Of a stretch of 64,000 bases of DNA, positions 27,764-38,425 are shown one piece after another. Location of the stretch: the IMG/VR virus record IMGVR_UViG_3300028831_000229, positions 1 to 64,000 of that record. One strand, given 5' to 3'. This DNA is from a virus. The first letter of the stretch is position 1, and the number at the start of each line of letters is the position of its first letter. The notes under the pieces are model-generated. The model had not been told where the DNA came from. It worked only from the letters and a program-made list of their open reading frames with translations, and searched no databases. Both the position numbers and the translations under genes were made by a program.

Positions 27764-28441
27764 ATGGCATACACCATTCGGATCCCGCTGGACCAAGAAG
27801 CTCTCAAGGAGCATCACTTGCCCACCACCAACGTGACGCTCGCACCAGCGGTCACGATCGACAAGCTCGGCATCGACATCTCAGGTCTGATGCACAAGCA
27901 TTACAACCTCGGCGACTGGAAGACCCACTACACGAAGGCGAAGAAGCTCGGCTCGGTCTTCGTGATCGAGATGCGCAACATCCGCCTCAAGGAAGACGCC
28001 CGCAAAGCGTACTGCGGCCAGCACGCCGGTCCGTGTGTGGCGGCACGTCCGCGCAGGCGCGATGGTTCTCCCAGGCCGCTGCCGAAGTCCTGCTACCTCG
28101 AGTCGGCGGACTGGATCAAGCTGCACAACATGATCAACGTCGTGCTCGACCTCCACCAGGTGAAGGCCGAAGTCTTCTCCACCCGCGTGGACATGTTCCA
28201 CGCGGTCGGCTGCTCCAAGAACAAGTTCCTCATCCGGTCACCTGACCTCGGCGGTCGAAAGCGCTACGACTACATCGATGGCGCTGGACCGAACGCGTTC
28301 CGTCCGCACTACCTCTTCGACCCTGGTCAGCCGTGCCAGTTCGGAGAGCACCTGTCCTACGGCGACGAAGCCGACGTGTCGGAGCTGCGCCAGGTGGCGC
28401 GCGTCGACTCGTGGAAAAACCAAGTGGTCGCCACGCATTGA
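27764..28441 (+). CDS. Hypothetical protein
   Basis: AAGGAG RBS; ORF track. Confidence 0.55.
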   Translation: MAYTIRIPLDQEALKEHHLPTTNVTLAPAVTIDKLGIDISGLMHKHYNLGDWKTHYTKAKKLGSVFVIEMRNIRLKEDARKAYCGQHAGPCVAARPRRRDGSPRPLPKSCYLESADWIKLHNMINVVLDLHQVKAEVFSTRVDMFHAVGCSKNKFLIRSPDLGGRKRYDYIDGAGPNAFRPHYLFDPGQPCQFGEHLSYGDEADVSELRQVARVDSWKNQVVATH

Positions 28442-28467
28442 CACGTCTCCGCGTAGCGTGTTACGCT
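28438..28467 (+). promoter_or_regulatory. Sigma70-like promoter inside an inverted repeat
   Basis: TTGACA, 18 nt, TACGCT; CGTAGCGT/ACGCTACG palindrome spans the -10. Confidence 0.55.
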
Positions 28468-28506
28468 ACGTAGAACACGTCAACCAACGTGCCACGAGAA
28501 GAGAAG

Positions 28507-29706
28507 ATGGTGGAAAGACGCAGAGCCGTGCGTTTGCGCGTCGTATACCGGCGCGTCCATTGTCCGTTCGGTCGCAACCCGTACAGCGACGCGTTCCGAG
28601 AGAAGGAGCTGGTGGAGAACGGCGGCTGGCGTGAGCGTGGTGAGACGCTTGATCCTCGGTACCGCACCAGCGGACCGATTGCGAGCGCCTTGACGTGTGA
28701 AGGACCCGACCAGGCGGCGGAGGAGGTCTTCGGACCGTTCACGTTCCTCCACAACTGCTACTTGGACAGCTCGATGCCGGAGCACCCGTGCTTCGGTTGC
28801 AAGCAAGCCAAGAAGTGGCGCACGTCGCTCGGTCTTCGTACCTTCCGCGTCGTGACCGAGTTGACGCACGTCAACACGCTAGGTCAGCCGCATCAAGACC
28901 ACCCGATGCAGGTGGTCTACTTGCCGCTCAACCAGGAAGGCACCGAGTGGTACGCGATGAACGCGTTCACCGGCGAACGGAAAGAGGTGGTGCGATCCGT
29001 AGTGGAGCACCGCCGCGAAGACGGCACGCTCATCACGACGACCTACCCGCGGCGCACGCCGCTCGGTAACGACCTGGAGCAGGACGTCGACACGCTGGAC
29101 CGTGAAGCGTGCGATGCTCAGCTCAAGCGAGGCGGCATGTTCAACGTGCCGTCACATGGTCCCGTGTGGAGCGGTGTCGAGTCACGAACCAAATGGAGGT
29201 GCGCGTGTGCAACGTGCACAGGACAGGAGCAGAAGATGATCAAAGAGAAGATGAGTCCGCAGGAAGTTGAAGACGCCGTGCGCGCGCTGAACGTCAACGC
29301 GCACGGCATCCGCAAGAGCGCTCACGACTACCCGAGCGCACCGGCCACGCCGGTCACCATGAACCGGAAGCCGACGCCGGAGCCGAAGCTGGCGATCGCT
29401 GAGATGTTCAAGAAGGACAAGACGCCGGCAGTCGGCGAGGTCTGGCGCCCGGAGCCCGGCAAGAATCAGGTCCGCGTGGTGCCGCTCGACCTCTCGAAGA
29501 AGACGCCGAAGAAGCACGCGGCCGAGAAGCTCCGCAGGCAGAGCCAAGGCGACGACTACGTCACGCCGTCCCAGGCGCTGTCAGAGGGCTTTCGTACGAT
29601 GACTGACAAGCCGAAGACGCTGGCGCTGGCGTCTTCGGTCAAGAAGACCAGCGCCACGTCCGCAACGCCACCCGTGAAGACCAAGGACGGTCGGAGGAAG
29701 AAATGA
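28507..29706 (+). CDS. Hypothetical protein with Cys motifs and a Lys/Pro-rich tail
   Basis: Purine-rich leader; ATGA-coupled to the AAA+ gene. Confidence 0.55.
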   Translation: MVERRRAVRLRVVYRRVHCPFGRNPYSDAFREKELVENGGWRERGETLDPRYRTSGPIASALTCEGPDQAAEEVFGPFTFLHNCYLDSSMPEHPCFGCKQAKKWRTSLGLRTFRVVTELTHVNTLGQPHQDHPMQVVYLPLNQEGTEWYAMNAFTGERKEVVRSVVEHRREDGTLITTTYPRRTPLGNDLEQDVDTLDREACDAQLKRGGMFNVPSHGPVWSGVESRTKWRCACATCTGQEQKMIKEKMSPQEVEDAVRALNVNAHGIRKSAHDYPSAPATPVTMNRKPTPEPKLAIAEMFKKDKTPAVGEVWRPEPGKNQVRVVPLDLSKKTPKKHAAEKLRRQSQGDDYVTPSQALSEGFRTMTDKPKTLALASSVKKTSATSATPPVKTKDGRRKK

Positions 29707-30875
29707 CTGCCGCGAAGGCTGCGAAGGTTGCTTGCCGCATCTGCAAGCGCGAGGAGCATATCCTCGTTGACCACATCACCAAGAAGCACGACACCGATCC
29801 AGTGGCGTACCTGGACAAGTACCCGGGCGCGCCGCTCTGGAGCACGTACGGTCTCCAGAAACTCAAGGAGATCCACAACGGCAGCGCCGTGGTCACCGCA
29901 ACGCCGCGTCCTCGGCGCAAGGTCGCCATGAAGAAGCTCTTCCCCGACTTCGGCAAGAAGTCCGGCCTGGAGCTGGTCGGCGACTACGAGGTGTTCGACA
30001 CGCCTGGTCCGCTGACTCCGAAGCGTGATCCGTATTTCCTCTTCCCGGAGGAGACCACGCTCGACTTCCTGCCGATCATCGAGCTGCCGTCGCGCAACCG
30101 CGTCTACATCCAAGGACCGCCCGGCACTGGCAAGTCCACGTTCGCCTTCCAGGTCGCGGCGGTCTTGAACGCCGAGATGCTGGAGTGGAACGCGGACGCG
30201 TTCATCCAGCGCTCCACGCTGATCGGCCAGTACCTGGTCATCAACGGCGAGACTGTCTGGGTGGATGGCATCCTGCCGCGCGCGATGCGCGGTGGCTACT
30301 GGCTCGTGATCAACGAGGTCGACATGCTCGACCCGTTGACCATGAACATCCTCAAGCCTGTCTTGGAGGATCCGCCGCGCTTGACCATCCTCGAGCACGG
30401 CGGTGAGATCGTCTACGCGCATCCAGACTTCCGCATCATCGCATGCGCGAACACCTGGGGTCGTGGCGACTCGACTGGCATGTTCGTCAACGCGCAGACG
30501 CACAGCATGGCCGACACGAACCGCTGGGCGCTGAAGCTGCGCATGAACTACCTCGACAAGGACGACGAGGCGCAGCTGCTCCGCAACTACTTCCCTGGTC
30601 GCCTTGGTGACGAGGAGAAGGAGGAGTCACCGAAGGACTCGCCCGAGAAGTTCATCGCGGTGGCCACGAAGGTGCGCGAGGCGCAGCAAGCTGGCAAGAT
30701 CGACTACACTGTGAGCCCTCGCGAGCTGGTCAACTGGGTCGAGAAGTACCTCGTGCTCGGCAAAGGCGTGCACCACGCCGCGCGCCGCACTTTCCTCGAC
30801 GCCTTGGAGCCGGACGTGAGCCACGCGATCCTCGAGTACATCAACGCCGAGTTCGGACAGGAGACGACGCCATGA
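29703..30875 (+). CDS. CobS/MoxR-like AAA+ ATPase with N-terminal Zn finger
   Basis: GPPGTGKST, WVDGILPRAM, VINEVD, HPDFRIIACANT, SPREL; CRIC..H..H. Confidence 0.88.
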   Translation: MTAAKAAKVACRICKREEHILVDHITKKHDTDPVAYLDKYPGAPLWSTYGLQKLKEIHNGSAVVTATPRPRRKVAMKKLFPDFGKKSGLELVGDYEVFDTPGPLTPKRDPYFLFPEETTLDFLPIIELPSRNRVYIQGPPGTGKSTFAFQVAAVLNAEMLEWNADAFIQRSTLIGQYLVINGETVWVDGILPRAMRGGYWLVINEVDMLDPLTMNILKPVLEDPPRLTILEHGGEIVYAHPDFRIIACANTWGRGDSTGMFVNAQTHSMADTNRWALKLRMNYLDKDDEAQLLRNYFPGRLGDEEKEESPKDSPEKFIAVATKVREAQQAGKIDYTVSPRELVNWVEKYLVLGKGVHHAARRTFLDALEPDVSHAILEYINAEFGQETTP

Positions 30876-31075
30876 GCAAGATCAACATCAGCGGTCGCAG
30901 CGATCGCATGCAGCCCCGTACGCAGAACATCCCACTTCGCACCGACCTCGGCTCGAAGCTCCGCGCCGCGTTGATCGCGCAGCCGGCGGCTCGTGTGCTG
31001 GCGAAGGCCGACTACGCCGGCCTGGAGACAGCCATGCTCGCCAAGATGAAGGAGGAGGCCCGTGGCGGCAGGTAG
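30872..31075 (+). CDS. 67-aa protein resembling the DNA Pol I motif 2 to motif A segment
   Basis: SGR..PRTQNIPLRTDLGSKLRAALIA..VLAKADYAGLETAMLA compared with Pol I TGRLSS..PNLQNIP.R..G..IR.AFIA..ADYSQIELR..A. Confidence 0.6.
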   Translation: MSKINISGRSDRMQPRTQNIPLRTDLGSKLRAALIAQPAARVLAKADYAGLETAMLAKMKEEARGGR

Positions 31076-31637
31076 CAGCCAACCGATGCACGCGTACCTC
31101 GTGAACGAGGATGAGAACAAGCAGTTCTTCATCGCCGTCCTCATGAACGAGCGCGACAACGATCAGTGGACGGTCTACACCGCCTGGGGGTTCACTGACT
31201 CGCACACGGTGCGTGGCGAGAAGGAGTACAACGGCGGCAAGGGCGGCGACAAGTTCTCCGGTCAGCGCAACGCAGAGGCGTACGCTGGCGCCATCTTGAA
31301 GACGAAGCAAGGCGACGGATTCAAGGTGCGTCCGAACGACGACGTCGAAGGCGAGCGTCCGATGTGGTGGGAGCAATGCGTCGAGCGCGGTGGTGAGCGC
31401 TACGGCGGCAAGGCGCCGGTGACCAAGCCGGTCGGTCTCAGCAAGACGAAGAGCCCGCCTCCGGTCTCGACCAGAGACATCACCACGCTCAAGGAGCGCA
31501 TGGCAGCCAAGGTGAAGATCGAGGCAGGCAAGGCCAAGATCGCCATCAAGCAGGACGGCAGCCAGGACTCAGAACCCGAACAACCGAAGCGCGTCATCCA
31601 GCCGCGGTTCGGCTTCGCACCGAGGAAGCAGCCATGA
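31062..31637 (+). CDS. WGR-like domain protein
   Basis: YL..NKQFFI..VYTAWGF..KTKQGDGF pattern; WGF in place of WGR. Confidence 0.55.
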   Translation: MAAGSSQPMHAYLVNEDENKQFFIAVLMNERDNDQWTVYTAWGFTDSHTVRGEKEYNGGKGGDKFSGQRNAEAYAGAILKTKQGDGFKVRPNDDVEGERPMWWEQCVERGGERYGGKAPVTKPVGLSKTKSPPPVSTRDITTLKERMAAKVKIEAGKAKIAIKQDGSQDSEPEQPKRVIQPRFGFAPRKQP

Positions 31638-34015
31638 CCGCAGCACCGGCTGTCTCGTCACGCAAGCGCGAGGCGTTGAACATCTCCATCGAGGACTTCA
31701 AGTCCGGGATGGAGAAGTTCGCCATGATGTTCACCGGCAACTACGGCGTGCAGCTCGTGTTCCGCGGCACGTCCGCGTACACGAACGGCAAGATCATCGT
31801 GGTGCCGGAGTTGAGCCTGCTCTCGCGCCCGAACATGACCGATGCCGAGATCGATGAAGCGCTCGAGTTCCTGATGTGCACGCGTGGCTTCGTCTACCAC
31901 GAAGGCGCGCACATCATCTTCAGTGGTGACATCACGTCGATCGTCCGATCGGCGATGCGCGTCAGCCCGAAGTTCAAGCATCTGTGGAACGTCATCGAAG
32001 ACCTGCGTGTCGAGAACAGCATCGCCAATCTGTACCCGGGTGCTCGCGAAGCGCTGGTCTTCATGAACGACTGGTTGCAGACCAGCATCGCCAAGAAGCT
32101 GGAAGCCGCTGGTGGTACGCTCTCACCGTTCGCGGCCACCTGTTACGCGATCGGGCTCATCGGCACGCTGTCAGGTCGCGGTGAAGACCACCAGCTGTGG
32201 TCGATGCTGAACGAGCAGACTCGCGAGTACGTGACCAGCATCCGCAAGCTGGTGATGCGTGCACGCAACGCGCAGAGCCCCAAGGTGGCGTACAAGATCG
32301 CGCTGGAGATCTGGAACCACCTGAAGGACGAAGAGGAGCGACGGAAGCAGGAGAAGAAGCGCCAGCGGGACGAAGAGAAGGCCAAGGCCGGCAAGAAGAC
32401 CAAGAAGGAGAAAAGCGATGGCAAGAGCAAGCGCAAGCCCAAGAAGCCCAAAGCTTCGTCCAAAGACGACGAAGGCGAGGACGACGACGCGTCCGGTGGC
32501 GCTCCTCTGGACGAAGACGACACCGACCAGGACGACGCTTCAGACGGCGGTGACGACGACGATGCCGGAGATGATTCTTCTGGAGATGAGGAGGGCGCTG
32601 AAGGAGACGGTGACGACGATGAATCTGCCGATGACGAAGGCGACGACGACGGTGACGGTGACGATCACGGTGACGGAGGACGAGGAGATGACGACGGAGA
32701 CGATGCCGCTACCGAAGAAGCGCCGGAGCCGGACCCTGCGCTAGATGCCGACGAGCAACTCGTTGGTGATGAAGCCGACGAGTCCGACAAGGCCGAGGAG
32801 AAGGAAGAGACCATCCGCGAGCGGATGAAGAACGAGGTCAAGCAGACGCTCGCGGTCGGCGAGCGGCGGTACCGTGTCTACACCACGGAGCACGATGTGA
32901 TCGGACCACCGCCCAAGCCGCCCAGCGATGACGACCTGCAACGCTACCGGCAGTTCGTCAACCGGCTCGATGAGGAGACCCGCTTCGCATACGGACCGGT
33001 GAAGCGCCAGCTCGAGAACCTCCTCAAGGCGCAGACGCACTCGTTCTACATCCACGGCCTCGACGCCGGAGAGCTGGACCCGGCAGCCCTCCACAGGCTA
33101 GCATCGGCGGCCAATGGTGGTCCGCAGATGAAGGCTCAGGCGCAGTACGTCTTCCGTGAGAAGGTGCGCGCGAAGAGCCTCAAGAGCACCGATGTCGAGA
33201 TCGTGATCGATGTCAGTGGCAGCATGGGGTGTGCAGGCAAGGACGTCTCGCTCTGGCACTGCCAGCAGTGCGACACCGAAGCCGAGCACCTGGTGGTGCC
33301 GCCGTCCATCGACTACTATCACTTCAGCGCTGCTCACCGGCTGGAGCTACCGAAGACGCACACGCACGAGTGCCCGTCGTGTGGGGTGATGACGCTCCAC
33401 AAGCTGGTGAAGGCCCCGGAGTGGGAAGCGAAGATCTCGCTCGCACGGAAGTGCGCGCTGGTCTTCGCTCACTCGCTGGAGTCCGTGCATGTGCCGTTCG
33501 ACATGTACACCTACACGACCGAAGATCCCGGGATGTCGGAGCGCGTGCTGGAGGAGATCCGCGACCGCTCCGTGGACGAGTACAACGAGGTGCGCCAGCT
33601 CTACTCGCGGTTCGGCGGTCTTCACATCATGGACATCAAGCGCTTCGATGAGCGCTGGGCGAACGTGATGTGGAGGCTTGCGCACGTCAACGCCGCGATG
33701 TGCAACTACGACGGCGAGTCGCTGCGGATCGGCGCGCAGCGGCTGATGGCGCGACGCAGCCAACGCAAGGTGATGTTCGTCCTGTGCGACGGCATCCCTG
33801 GTCCGTGCGCAAGCGAGTCGACGGAAGCGCACCGGCTGTACCTGCACGACGTGGTCAAGGAGATCCGCAGCGCCACGCCGATCGAGATCGTGTGCATCGG
33901 AATCGGTGCGCCGGAGGCTGCGGAGTTCTACAACCCGGGGTATGTCAACGTGATGAACGCCAAACAGCTCCCGGCGATCTGCATCCAGCAACTCAAACGC
34001 GTGTTGCTTCAGTAA
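31634..34015 (+). CDS. CobT-like VWA protein (N-terminal HExxH, acidic linker, MIDAS)
   Basis: AYTNG, YHEGAH, NVIEDLRVE; Asp-rich linker; IDVSGSM, NYDGE, RKVMFVLCDG, CIGIG. Confidence 0.85.
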   Translation: MTAAPAVSSRKREALNISIEDFKSGMEKFAMMFTGNYGVQLVFRGTSAYTNGKIIVVPELSLLSRPNMTDAEIDEALEFLMCTRGFVYHEGAHIIFSGDITSIVRSAMRVSPKFKHLWNVIEDLRVENSIANLYPGAREALVFMNDWLQTSIAKKLEAAGGTLSPFAATCYAIGLIGTLSGRGEDHQLWSMLNEQTREYVTSIRKLVMRARNAQSPKVAYKIALEIWNHLKDEEERRKQEKKRQRDEEKAKAGKKTKKEKSDGKSKRKPKKPKASSKDDEGEDDDASGGAPLDEDDTDQDDASDGGDDDDAGDDSSGDEEGAEGDGDDDESADDEGDDDGDGDDHGDGGRGDDDGDDAATEEAPEPDPALDADEQLVGDEADESDKAEEKEETIRERMKNEVKQTLAVGERRYRVYTTEHDVIGPPPKPPSDDDLQRYRQFVNRLDEETRFAYGPVKRQLENLLKAQTHSFYIHGLDAGELDPAALHRLASAANGGPQMKAQAQYVFREKVRAKSLKSTDVEIVIDVSGSMGCAGKDVSLWHCQQCDTEAEHLVVPPSIDYYHFSAAHRLELPKTHTHECPSCGVMTLHKLVKAPEWEAKISLARKCALVFAHSLESVHVPFDMYTYTTEDPGMSERVLEEIRDRSVDEYNEVRQLYSRFGGLHIMDIKRFDERWANVMWRLAHVNAAMCNYDGESLRIGAQRLMARRSQRKVMFVLCDGIPGPCASESTEAHRLYLHDVVKEIRSATPIEIVCIGIGAPEAAEFYNPGYVNVMNAKQLPAICIQQLKRVLLQ

Positions 34016-36097: not shown

Positions 36098-38425
36098 ATG
36101 TCCAGATCACCAGTCGAGTTCGCCGATACCAAGAAGAAAGCCCGTCGCTTCATGGACGAGCTGTACAAGGAGGCGTACCTCAACCGCCTCGACACGGCGA
36201 TGGACACCGAGTTCGACTTCAAGACGAACCAGATCGCCTTGATGTCGTACTCCTGGGGTCCAGGCATCCGCCGCGTCGTGCAAGGCGACCTCGTGTTGCC
36301 TCACTTCGGCGACTGGCTCGTGGACGACCAGTCGAAGATCGTCTACCAGAACCTCAAGGCCGACAAGGAGGTTATGGAAGAGGCCGGCATCGATGTCGTA
36401 CCCAGCTTCTACGCTGACATCATGATCACCGGCTGGCTTCATGACGAGACGCTCATGAAGCACGACCTCAAGACGCAGAGCGAGCACTGGTTGAAGGACC
36501 CGGATGCTCCAGCGAAGCCGTGGAGGCGAAAGCCGTACCAGCACCTCTTCGCCTACGTGCCGGAAGGCAAGAAGACGCCGATCGTAATGACGCCGTTCCA
36601 GGTGCTCTACGATCTGCCGCCCGATGCGCTGCGTAACGCCTTGAAAACACCAGGCGTGAAGTCCAAGAAGATCCCACCGACCACGGAGCCGCGCACGCGC
36701 GAGCAGTGGTTGCAGCTGATGCTCGACTACTCGGGTGACGACGCCGAGAGCACGGTGCTCAACCACCACGTACACAAGAAGTACCTCAAGCGCATCGGCT
36801 ACTGGAAGAACTACCTCGCGATCGACAGACCGTACACGCTCACGCTCCTCGCTCAGTCCGACCGCGGCGTGCTACTCGACATCCCGCGACTCAAGGTCAT
36901 CCTCCGCAAGATGGACGTGAAGATCATGCGCGCGGAGCGTGTGTTCCGAGCGTTAGCCGGCAACCCGAAGCTCAACCTGCGCAGCGGACCGCAGATGCAG
37001 GAGCTGCTCATCAACGAGTGGGGTTGGCCGGTGCGTGACGACTTCAAGACGGCGACCGGCGCAGCGAAGCTCAACAAGGAGGCGATGTACTGGTGGAGCG
37101 AAGAAGGCTACGAGATGGCCGACGTCAAGCTGGAGTTCAACAACGCTGCCACGATGAAGGGCACGTTCCTCCAAGGCTTGATCAACGGTGTCAGTGACGA
37201 CGGTCGCCTGCGTTCGGACTTCAACCAGATCGGCGCACGCACCGGTCGCATTTCTTCGCGGAAGGGCGTTGAGGAGGTCGAGGAGGAGTACACGCTGAAG
37301 AACGGCGTCACCAAGACGCGCACCAAGAAGGTGAAGGTCGGCGCGAACCTCCAGAACATCCCGAGCCGGAAGGAGAAGGATCCGGACGGCATCCGTGGTG
37401 CCTTCATCGCACCGAAGGCTGGACAGATCACAGCGTGGGGCGACGTGGCGGACGAAGACCACGTGCTCATCGTCTGCGACTTCAGCGGCTTCGAGCTGTG
37501 CATGGCGATTCACTGGGCGTCCAGCCTGGTGAAGGACTCGCCGATGCTCAAGGTGATGCACAAGTACGGTTCGCCGAGCGCGTGCCACGCGTTCACCGCG
37601 ATCAACCTCTACGCCGAGCACGTTCACCGCTGCGACTCCAGCTGCTACGAGGTTGACAAGAAGACCAAGCTCGTGGTGATGGGCGCAGACGGCAAGCCGG
37701 TCTTCAAGAAGTTCCACGCCGACGGTCAGAAGATCAAGCTCGGCAAGATCAAGATGGACGACTGGAAGATGGTGAAGGCGCTCTTCCCTGACCAGTACCT
37801 CATCTCGAAGAACAACAACTTCAACCTGCTGTACGGCGGCTCGCCCAAGATGATGGCGCGGCTTCGCGGTCTCGACTTCCGAGACGAGGCGGTGCTGGAC
37901 GAGTGTCGCGAGCAGGCGCAGGCATGGAACGACCTCTACCAGGAGATCCCGATCTACCAGCGCTTCATGGTGGACCACGGTTACGAAGAAGGCTGGGTCC
38001 CAGTGCTCGGCGGCTGGCACGCGAACGTCGCGAACGGTCTCGCAGGCAAGGACAGCAACGGCAAATTCGTCTCGGACGAGGACAAGCGCAAGCGTCTCAT
38101 CGCTCACTGGGAACGCGTGTGCATGAACACGCCGTGCCAAGGCAGCGCGAGCTGGATCGTGAAGATGGCGCAGATCCTGTGCGAACGTGATCAGCGTCTT
38201 CGCGAGATGCGTTGCGCGCAGCTGTTCCCGGTGCACGATGAGCTGGTCTTCGAGGTGCCGAAGCGCTTCGCGCAGGAGTGCCTGCCGATCGTGATCGGCA
38301 ACATGAAGAAACCGTTCGCTCCTGGTTCGAGCGGCAAGAAGCATCCCAAGCCTCACGAGGAACTCGCCTTCCTGATGGACGTGGAAGGCATGATCGGTGA
38401 GAACTGGTTGCAAGCGAAGGGCTAA
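36098..38425 (+). CDS. Family A DNA polymerase with 3'-5' exonuclease
   Basis: DTE exonuclease motif; TGRISS, NLQNIP, CDFSGFEL, KNNNFNLLYG, NTPCQG, VHDELVFE. Confidence 0.93.
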   Translation: MSRSPVEFADTKKKARRFMDELYKEAYLNRLDTAMDTEFDFKTNQIALMSYSWGPGIRRVVQGDLVLPHFGDWLVDDQSKIVYQNLKADKEVMEEAGIDVVPSFYADIMITGWLHDETLMKHDLKTQSEHWLKDPDAPAKPWRRKPYQHLFAYVPEGKKTPIVMTPFQVLYDLPPDALRNALKTPGVKSKKIPPTTEPRTREQWLQLMLDYSGDDAESTVLNHHVHKKYLKRIGYWKNYLAIDRPYTLTLLAQSDRGVLLDIPRLKVILRKMDVKIMRAERVFRALAGNPKLNLRSGPQMQELLINEWGWPVRDDFKTATGAAKLNKEAMYWWSEEGYEMADVKLEFNNAATMKGTFLQGLINGVSDDGRLRSDFNQIGARTGRISSRKGVEEVEEEYTLKNGVTKTRTKKVKVGANLQNIPSRKEKDPDGIRGAFIAPKAGQITAWGDVADEDHVLIVCDFSGFELCMAIHWASSLVKDSPMLKVMHKYGSPSACHAFTAINLYAEHVHRCDSSCYEVDKKTKLVVMGADGKPVFKKFHADGQKIKLGKIKMDDWKMVKALFPDQYLISKNNNFNLLYGGSPKMMARLRGLDFRDEAVLDECREQAQAWNDLYQEIPIYQRFMVDHGYEEGWVPVLGGWHANVANGLAGKDSNGKFVSDEDKRKRLIAHWERVCMNTPCQGSASWIVKMAQILCERDQRLREMRCAQLFPVHDELVFEVPKRFAQECLPIVIGNMKKPFAPGSSGKKHPKPHEELAFLMDVEGMIGENWLQAKG

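Follow-up and report, generated by a model that had tools for sequence, protein, structure and literature searches.

Accessory insertions between conserved phage genes are known as morons, and short open reading frames (ORFs) with polymerase motifs occur in phages that carry split or interrupted polymerase genes, as in the case of the ProddE polymerase, which is annotated with an intron. Protein fragments can also inhibit in vivo, which is reported for Escherichia coli proteins (PMC11831152). We analyzed a 64,000-nucleotide stretch of viral DNA, referred to as the window (positions 1 to 64,000 of the IMG/VR record IMGVR_UViG_3300028831_000229, whose numbering is used throughout). It contains a stand-alone gene, referred to as the mini gene, for a 67-amino-acid (67-aa) protein that matches a segment of family A DNA polymerases (PolA) of the DNA polymerase I (Pol I) type. 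The full virus record is 117,941 bp long, is rated complete, and has a guanine-plus-cytosine (GC) content of 62%. The reading that we prefer, toward which we lean without great confidence, is that the mini gene is a real, translated, and selectively kept small gene, namely, a domesticated, noncatalytic PolA fragment that acts as a binding microprotein. What the data show is homology to PolA, the anatomy of a gene, presence restricted to a lineage, and signs of purifying selection; translation, action by binding, and the target are what we infer.

The mini gene resembles a moron in that it is small and additional and occupies a junction that is uninterrupted in a complete relative, the related virus G001. 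In contrast to morons, it is translationally coupled into an operon and has no promoter or terminator of its own that could be found; between positions 28000 and 36500, we detected no promoter-like sites and no terminator-like sites on the plus strand. In contrast to split polymerase genes, there are no complementary pieces, the PolA gene of the phage is intact, and the mini gene lies 5 kb from it in a different operon. Like the inhibitory fragments of the report cited above (PMC11831152), the mini protein corresponds to a short part of a larger protein, stands alone, and is unable to carry out the reaction of its parent, but those fragments were made in the laboratory, whereas the mini gene is a natural phage gene.

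Likeness to the DNA-contact segment of Pol I

A reading made from the letters of the window without database searches, referred to as the sequence-only reading, had noticed a nearly gapless likeness of the mini protein to the active-site segment of Pol I, including the Asp and Glu of motif A, and database searches bear this out. The Pfam DNA_pol_A model matches residues 6 to 62 on profile positions 117 to 173 (57 of the 381 positions) with an E value of 6.5e-9 and 35.6 bits, which is significant by the curated gathering cutoff of 34.3 bits. In a phmmer search of PDB, residues 7 to 62 align without gaps to chain positions 317 to 372 of the large fragment of Bst Pol I (whole-sequence E value of 1.2e-6), and all 55 distinct PDB sequences with E values of ≤1 are Pol I or Taq. 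A phmmer search of 1.84 billion representative proteins yielded 304 with E values of ≤0.001, and the closest full-length matches are Pol I-type proteins of 860 to 864 aa with 44 to 46% identity.

The matched segment consists of the DNA-contact loops, TGR...QNIP.R...G..R, followed by the strand and helix of motif A. Both the motif A Asp (D47) and Glu (E52) fall on their counterparts in the gapless alignment to Bst Pol I (PDB 1L3S group), and the mini protein also keeps the Arg, Gln, Asn, and Arg that contact DNA in that enzyme. By this alignment, R9, Q18, N19, R23, D47, and E52 would correspond to R615, Q624, N625, R629, D653, and E658 of Bst Pol I, which are presumably residues that contact the primer-template, the Asp that binds metal, and the sugar-gate Glu. 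Among the four members of the small protein family described below, D47 is invariant, and E52 is not kept in one member (P0124). This family differs from family A polymerases in that the Phe of the "R.AF" helix is replaced by Leu in all four members and the Arg of "ELR" is lost. The mini ORF ends 15 residues past motif A, and the thumb, the fingers (motif B), motif C, the exonuclease domain, and the N-terminal domain are not present within its 67 residues. The lack of motifs B and C and of every other domain excludes activity of the mini protein as a polymerase, as judged from its sequence; the sequence-only reading had likewise considered it too short to be an enzyme.

That reading had also placed the mini protein closer to cellular Pol I than to the PolA of the phage itself, a complete enzyme encoded farther downstream (Table 1). 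Consistent with this placement, BLASTP returned no alignment between the mini protein and the 775-aa PolA at an E value of ≤100. The donor of the mini gene was not the phage's own PolA, with the likeness being greatest to Pol I-type enzymes. The 775-aa PolA contains two insertions, one of ~28 residues that separates TGRISS from NLQNIP and another that precedes motif A (positions 37200 to 37500, residues ~380 to 470), and its palm/thumb junction is unusual for family A. Both insertions are common to the PolA of G001, which is 53% identical overall.

An enzyme that is unusual in exactly the region copied by the mini gene would fit a split polymerase, in which the peptide lends motif A or DNA contacts to the phage PolA in trans. 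We regard such a trans-acting subunit as extremely unlikely because G001 has the same polymerase, with the same insertions, and lacks the peptide. Moreover, the 775-aa PolA retains its own TGR, NLQNIP, and D-F-S-G-F-E motifs, including the Asp and the Glu, and the Pfam model detected no complementary PolA fragments elsewhere in the whole 117,941-bp genome, where its four matches are three inside the 775-aa PolA and one in the mini gene.

The sequence-only reading had named decayed polA sequence in the flanking frames as the mark of a simple pseudogene. We found none with tblastn searches of 10 full-length Pol I proteins against positions 28001 to 34000, in which significant matches were confined to the mini gene. 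The ten best matches on it have E values of 9e-9 to 3e-11, and one further alignment with an E value below 0.01 is weaker and overlaps the mini gene. The flanks are instead the conserved end of the upstream gene, which encodes a CobS-like ATPase, and the conserved start of the next gene. The in-frame stretch immediately upstream (positions 30611 to 30871) is a shifted frame of the CobS-like gene and has no PolA likeness. Some of the tblastn Pol I alignments are extended by "DPRVH" just upstream of the mini gene, which we took as chance; these residues lie inside the conserved C-terminal codons of the CobS-like gene. The ribosome-binding site, ATGA coupling, and stop codon that had been read from the sequence are in place, with a Shine-Dalgarno-like AGGAG 8 nt upstream of the start codon (Table 1). 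We rejected a decaying polA pseudogene on the basis of the conserved neighboring flanks, the Shine-Dalgarno sequence and coupled ATG, and the mostly synonymous changes described below.

Short homologs of the mini protein

Short homologs were sought among the best 150 of the 304 representatives. Three proteins from other metagenomes, P0002 (79 aa), P0124 (66 aa), and P0023 (56 aa), are 55%, 51%, and 51% identical to the window protein, respectively, and are clearly versions of its gene product. P0002 and P0124 begin with the same MSK[IV]NI, and P0023 aligns from its own residue 4. P0002 is encoded on a contig of 90,069 bp and P0023 on a contig of 23,903 bp, and these two are therefore not contig-end stubs; P0124 is found on a 526-bp contig. 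The residues M1, R9, P15, Q18, N19, I20, P21, R23, D25, L26, G27, K29, R31, L34, Q37, P38, L43, and D47 are invariant in all four members. Across the family, the N-terminal half, which we take to line the primer-template cleft in Pol I, is far better conserved than the half containing motif A.

A homolog of the CobS-like protein with 66% identity is also found on a contig of 90,069 bp. If this is the contig that carries P0002, the divergence of the mini gene (55%) would be only a little greater than that of the block's best-conserved gene (66%), and a neutral 200-bp stretch would be expected to be unrecognizable at that divergence.

Ten other short representatives were rejected as family members and treated as partial Pol I; several of them are on contigs shorter than 1.5 kb or fall into clusters that include longer pieces of Pol I. 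P0004 (98 aa, from a 9,879-bp Logan contig) and P0048 (63 aa, from a 3,268-bp contig) contain this polymerase segment as well and stop at the same point, and P0004 has an additional Cys-rich N-terminal extension. These two may be independent stand-alone fragment genes, and they score better to the full-length polymerase family phrog_17. Scans of viral contigs with P0004 and P0048 returned full-length PolA only, plus one ORF of 197 aa (L115:4977-5570, in IMGVR_UViG_3300046512_000131) that opens with a 26-residue patch of the same segment, PNIQNIPIRTAEGRKIRDAF. The patch scores 25.9 bits with Pfam DNA_pol_A, which is below the cutoff, and the rest of this ORF is an unrelated domain with no Pfam family. 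Small patches of PolA motifs may recur in phage genes, either as scars of recombination or as modules.

Beyond these representatives, we searched for relatives at the level of contigs and phage records. Single-sequence scans of viral contigs with the mini protein and the CobS-like protein identified no relatives, and a scan of viral contigs with the four-sequence family alignment hit six loci, all of which are ordinary PolA in open frames of 245 to 887 aa. The shortest of these frames (L005:9521-10255, in IMGVR_UViG_3300020577_004200) includes the stretch from TGR to motif A, has a total of only 245 aa in the middle of a 40.8-kb viral contig, and may be a split or interrupted PolA gene. A degenerate DNA pattern of the family core matched no stretches in viral contigs and 86 stretches in metagenome contigs, all of them ordinary Pol I (TGR[LMFI]S... 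with a DYSQ-type motif A). These 86 stretches lie in frames that are long or cut by the locus end, except for L094 (98 aa) and L030 (366 aa), which are near-identical to 862-aa Pol I genes. A stricter family pattern had no matches in genome contigs. A pattern of the CobS-like protein matched a single viral contig, that of G001, and none of the genome contigs, and a scan with the CobS-like alignment identified at least four distant loci.

A set of 50,697 phage records was searched by tblastn; the mini protein matched 297 of them, P0002 matched 62, and P0023 matched 250. The matches in the five records that we opened are all to full-length polymerases. The sequence-only reading had proposed looking for homologs of similar length in other phages; such homologs do exist in metagenomes, whereas the phage records opened did not provide any.

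The best PHROG (PHROGs v4) for all four family members is phrog_12116, an 81-position profile labeled "DNA polymerase" (E values of 6.6e-7 to 1.8e-4). For the window protein, the E value is 6.6e-7, with residues 9 to 59 aligned to profile positions 4 to 56, and the scores of all four members to phrog_12116 beat their scores to phrog_17. The mini protein is of a similar length class to this PHROG, which carries no attached function. However, phrog_12116 also scores against the ordinary Pol I of 10 of the 14 control genomes, and among four phage records, it matches only full-length PolA, in two of them; the PHROG may be a mere collection of polymerase pieces. Full-text literature searches, which did not extend to supplementary files, retrieved no paper on a stand-alone PolA-fragment gene in phages. 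The claim that no function has been described for such a gene stands as far as these searches go, but similar short ORFs appear to be cataloged already in PHROGs as phrog_12116, where they are left without explanation.

Signs of selection and lineage-specific presence

Codon usage in the mini gene is that of a phage gene. GC contents by codon position are 0.62, 0.50, and 0.87, as in the real genes of the phage, and the third-position value of 0.87 in frame compares to 0.51 to 0.63 at the same codon position in the two shifted frames. The per-codon log-likelihood of 1.03 equals the mean for 180 pieces of 26 long genes, each 67 codons in length (1.03; standard deviation, 0.37), and falls at the 46th percentile, while each of the two shifted frames has a negative score against at least one of two off-frame models.

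Contigs of a strain that is ~92% identical (X2) bridge both junctions of the mini gene (positions 30826 to 30991 and 31007 to 31378). Among the differences listed, six codons of the mini gene are changed, of which four are synonymous, one is ATG to GTG, and one is D11N. The first of the nonsynonymous changes, A30872G, is silent in the CobS-like gene (CCA to CCG) and leaves GTG, still a start codon, for the mini gene; the Asn at position 11 is also found in P0002. The ratio of nonsynonymous to synonymous differences per site (pN/pS) is ~0.05 to 0.10, with binomial P values of 0.002 to 0.005 against the neutral expectation and 0.045 when codon position alone is counted. Among the differences listed for the CobS-like gene, 29 codons are changed, 26 of them synonymously. 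The mini gene therefore shows signs of purifying selection. A second run, X1, has just a 40-nt contig piece at the mini gene, with seven differences, which is no evidence of absence. No RNA run is listed as containing the stretch, which speaks neither for nor against expression.

These data bear on the possibility that the mini gene is a neutral relic, that is, a scrap of polymerase sequence from illegitimate recombination that is functionless and open by chance in GC-rich DNA. Random ORFs of this size are common at 62% GC, and 105 ORFs of at least 40 aa overlap the 12 kb for which ORFs were listed. We nonetheless consider a relic unlikely: the homologs have the same start, similar lengths, and 51 to 55% identity while the best-conserved neighbor reaches just 66%; the changes in X2 are mostly synonymous, with the start codon swapped only for another start; and the codon bias is fully phage-like, with a good Shine-Dalgarno sequence and ATGA coupling.

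The lineage-specific presence of the mini gene is evident from G001, the related virus found by the CobS-like pattern scan. G001 has 117,394 bp with terminal repeats and is rated 100% complete. Its gene order is the same, and four aligned proteins are 36%, 55%, 28%, and 40% identical; the CobS-like proteins of the two viruses are 55% identical. In G001, the next gene starts one base after the stop codon of the CobS-like gene, with no mini gene between them, and neither PF00476 nor the mini-family profile detected an extra PolA-like piece in its genome. Because G001 is syntenic and complete and does not have the mini gene, the mini gene represents, relative to G001, an insertion of ~210 bp (positions 30876 to 31085) or a lineage-specific gene, either gained in the sub-lineage of the window or cleanly lost in that of G001. 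No convincing direct repeats flank the insertion.

The junction in G001 also informs whether the mini gene is only a coupling or leader ORF, the translation of which would pass ribosomes on from the CobS-like gene to its downstream neighbor and set the ratio between these two genes, with the peptide itself being irrelevant. The operon is indeed tight, with ATGA upstream, 10 nt to the next start codon with its weak Shine-Dalgarno sequence, and no promoter-like site or plus-strand terminator-like site in the region given above. However, the direct coupling of these two genes in G001 and the conservation of the peptide sequence make a pure coupling spacer quite unlikely. A spacer would not be expected to hold a peptide with PolA contact residues at 51 to 55% identity, nor would synonymous-biased change be expected of it.

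Several observations weigh against a selectively kept gene with a binding role, and some of them favor a neutral relic. The family is tiny, with four sequences from a search of 1.84 billion representatives, as seen in the best 150 of the 304 matches, and G001 lives without the mini gene, so that the core life cycle does not require it. Conservation of the C-terminal half is generally poor, and P0124 loses its likeness to the others after the motif A Asp. The equal contig size of 90,069 bp is all that links P0002 to the CobS-like homolog. The substitution test comprises seven nucleotide differences on one contig with a depth of 5.2, and the differences listed are the best-supported ones, next to 139 others over a 2.5-kb stretch. 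Finally, the structural model gives no sign of an autonomous fold. An AlphaFold2 prediction from six sequences has low confidence (predicted local distance difference test score of 64.5 and predicted template modeling score of 0.28), with the first 24 residues as coil followed by three helices. A search of a protein atlas returned no match at ≥0.9, and the structural neighbors are those of a low-confidence model.

Taken as a whole, the interpretation offered by the sequence-only reading is partly supported. The domesticated remnant that it had suggested is supported by the lack of decayed flanks, the absence from G001, the short homologs with the same start, and the mostly synonymous changes. 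The decoy, mimic, or inhibitor peptide that it had offered alongside is a hypothesis.

Candidate roles of the peptide and its gene neighborhood

If the mini gene is a domesticated PolA fragment, ~200 bp from the gene of a Pol I-type family A polymerase would have lodged between the CobS-like gene and its downstream neighbor, within one sub-lineage of a soil phage group with genomes of ~118 kb. The product would keep the DNA-contact residues without polymerization. It may bind to a primer-template junction or to a partner surface that normally meets this segment of the polymerase; candidate partners are the host Pol I, the polymerase of a rival phage, or a sensor of such polymerases. The partner would be modulated or blocked without catalysis. 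A binding microprotein is suggested because the strictest conservation is in the N-terminal, cleft-lining half and because the peptide has a low-confidence fold on its own. Co-folding of the mini family alignment with PolA residues 250 to 775, based on a two-row alignment and without controls, produced a score of 0.00 against a mark of 0.32, which is not evidence for or against binding.

A more specific version, which we would bet against, is that the peptide is a phage-encoded mimic of the polymerase cleft, derived from the primer-terminus loops of Pol I. Such a mimic would poison or redirect a family A polymerase or its sensor, and its target could be the Pol I of the host during takeover, the replicase of a rival phage during coinfection, or an immune sensor. 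If true, this would be the first natural example of a virus weaponizing a fragment of the active-site cleft of a replicative enzyme.

Counterdefense genes are often accessory and present in some relatives only, and the mini gene is itself an accessory insertion in some relatives only. The peptide could in principle be an antidefense decoy that imitates the part of a family A polymerase seen by a host immune sensor. According to one report, the defense system Borvo senses phage family A polymerases (10.1101/2022.08.27.505566). We consider a decoy very unlikely, since the Borvo escape mutations given in that report are in the proofreading cleft and not in the palm segment copied here (10.1101/2022.08.27.505566), and since a peptide nearer to cellular Pol I than to the phage PolA would be an odd decoy of the phage enzyme.

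If functional, the mini gene would be an instance from nature in which a virus has retained only ~60 residues of the active-site cleft of a polymerase, encoded on their own, and its product would be a compact binder, tested by evolution, of primer-template junctions or of family A polymerases. A functional mini gene would further indicate that enzyme fragments can be domesticated as phage regulators, an idea tried so far mainly with laboratory-made fragments. A target among polymerases or immune sensors, if shown, would raise its importance, whereas a neutral mini gene would be a minor curiosity on recombination scars. In either case, the mini ORF is a warning for annotation: it passes the DNA_pol_A threshold and would be labeled "DNA polymerase" although it cannot be one.

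The plus strand carries all long ORFs with gene-like codon composition across the whole record, and the mini gene is the second gene of a tight four-gene block that also encodes the CobS-like ATPase, a 183-aa protein, and a CobT-like protein (Table 1).

Table 1. Positions in the window of the mini gene, its translation signals, the neighboring genes, and the phage PolA gene
Feature	Position	Strand	Basis
CobS-like MoxR-type AAA+ ATPase, 390 aa	29703..30875	+	Pfam AAA_5, E 1.7e-22; CbbQ_C, weak; phrog_249, E 2e-47
Shine-Dalgarno-like AGGAG, 8 nt before the mini-gene ATG	30859..30863	+	Read from the sequence
ATGA start/stop overlap of the CobS-like TGA with the mini-gene ATG (translational coupling)	30872..30875	+	Read from the sequence
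Mini gene, 67 aa; ATG start, TAG stop at 31073-31075	30872..31075	+	ORF list; Pfam DNA_pol_A
Downstream neighbor, 183 aa, no Pfam family	31086..31637	+	ORF list; start by G001 homology
CobT-like VWA protein, 793 aa, last of the four-gene block	31634..34015	+	Pfam CobT_C, E 4.7e-17; phrog_1576, E 1.1e-69
Complete family A DNA polymerase (PolA), 775 aa	36098..38425	+	Pfam DNA_pol_A, E 2.4e-36

The CobS-like protein has 46 homologs with E values of ≤1e-20. Near its N terminus (positions 29703 to 29800), C11, C14, H24, and H29 are invariant across 22 aligned homologs, which suggests a small zinc-binding module; we know of no such N-terminal module in canonical CobS. At the DNA level, the only matches of the window to known phages are with 27 records of Erwinia, Dickeya, and Ralstonia jumbo phages, with 67 to 70% identity at positions 32459 to 32706. 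We rejected these matches as a sign of kinship; on the window side, they lie in a stretch of the CobT-like gene that is acidic and of low complexity, and in the phage records, they are located in unrelated hypothetical proteins.

The 183-aa protein has no match to WGR and none to any Pfam family at an E value below 0.07, with TraI-like_C as the best (E value of 0.08). It is 28% identical to its G001 counterpart over 164 aligned residues, and the two have a common start, M[HY]AYL. They also end in the same basic C-terminal tail, PRF-x-[FY]-x-PRK.

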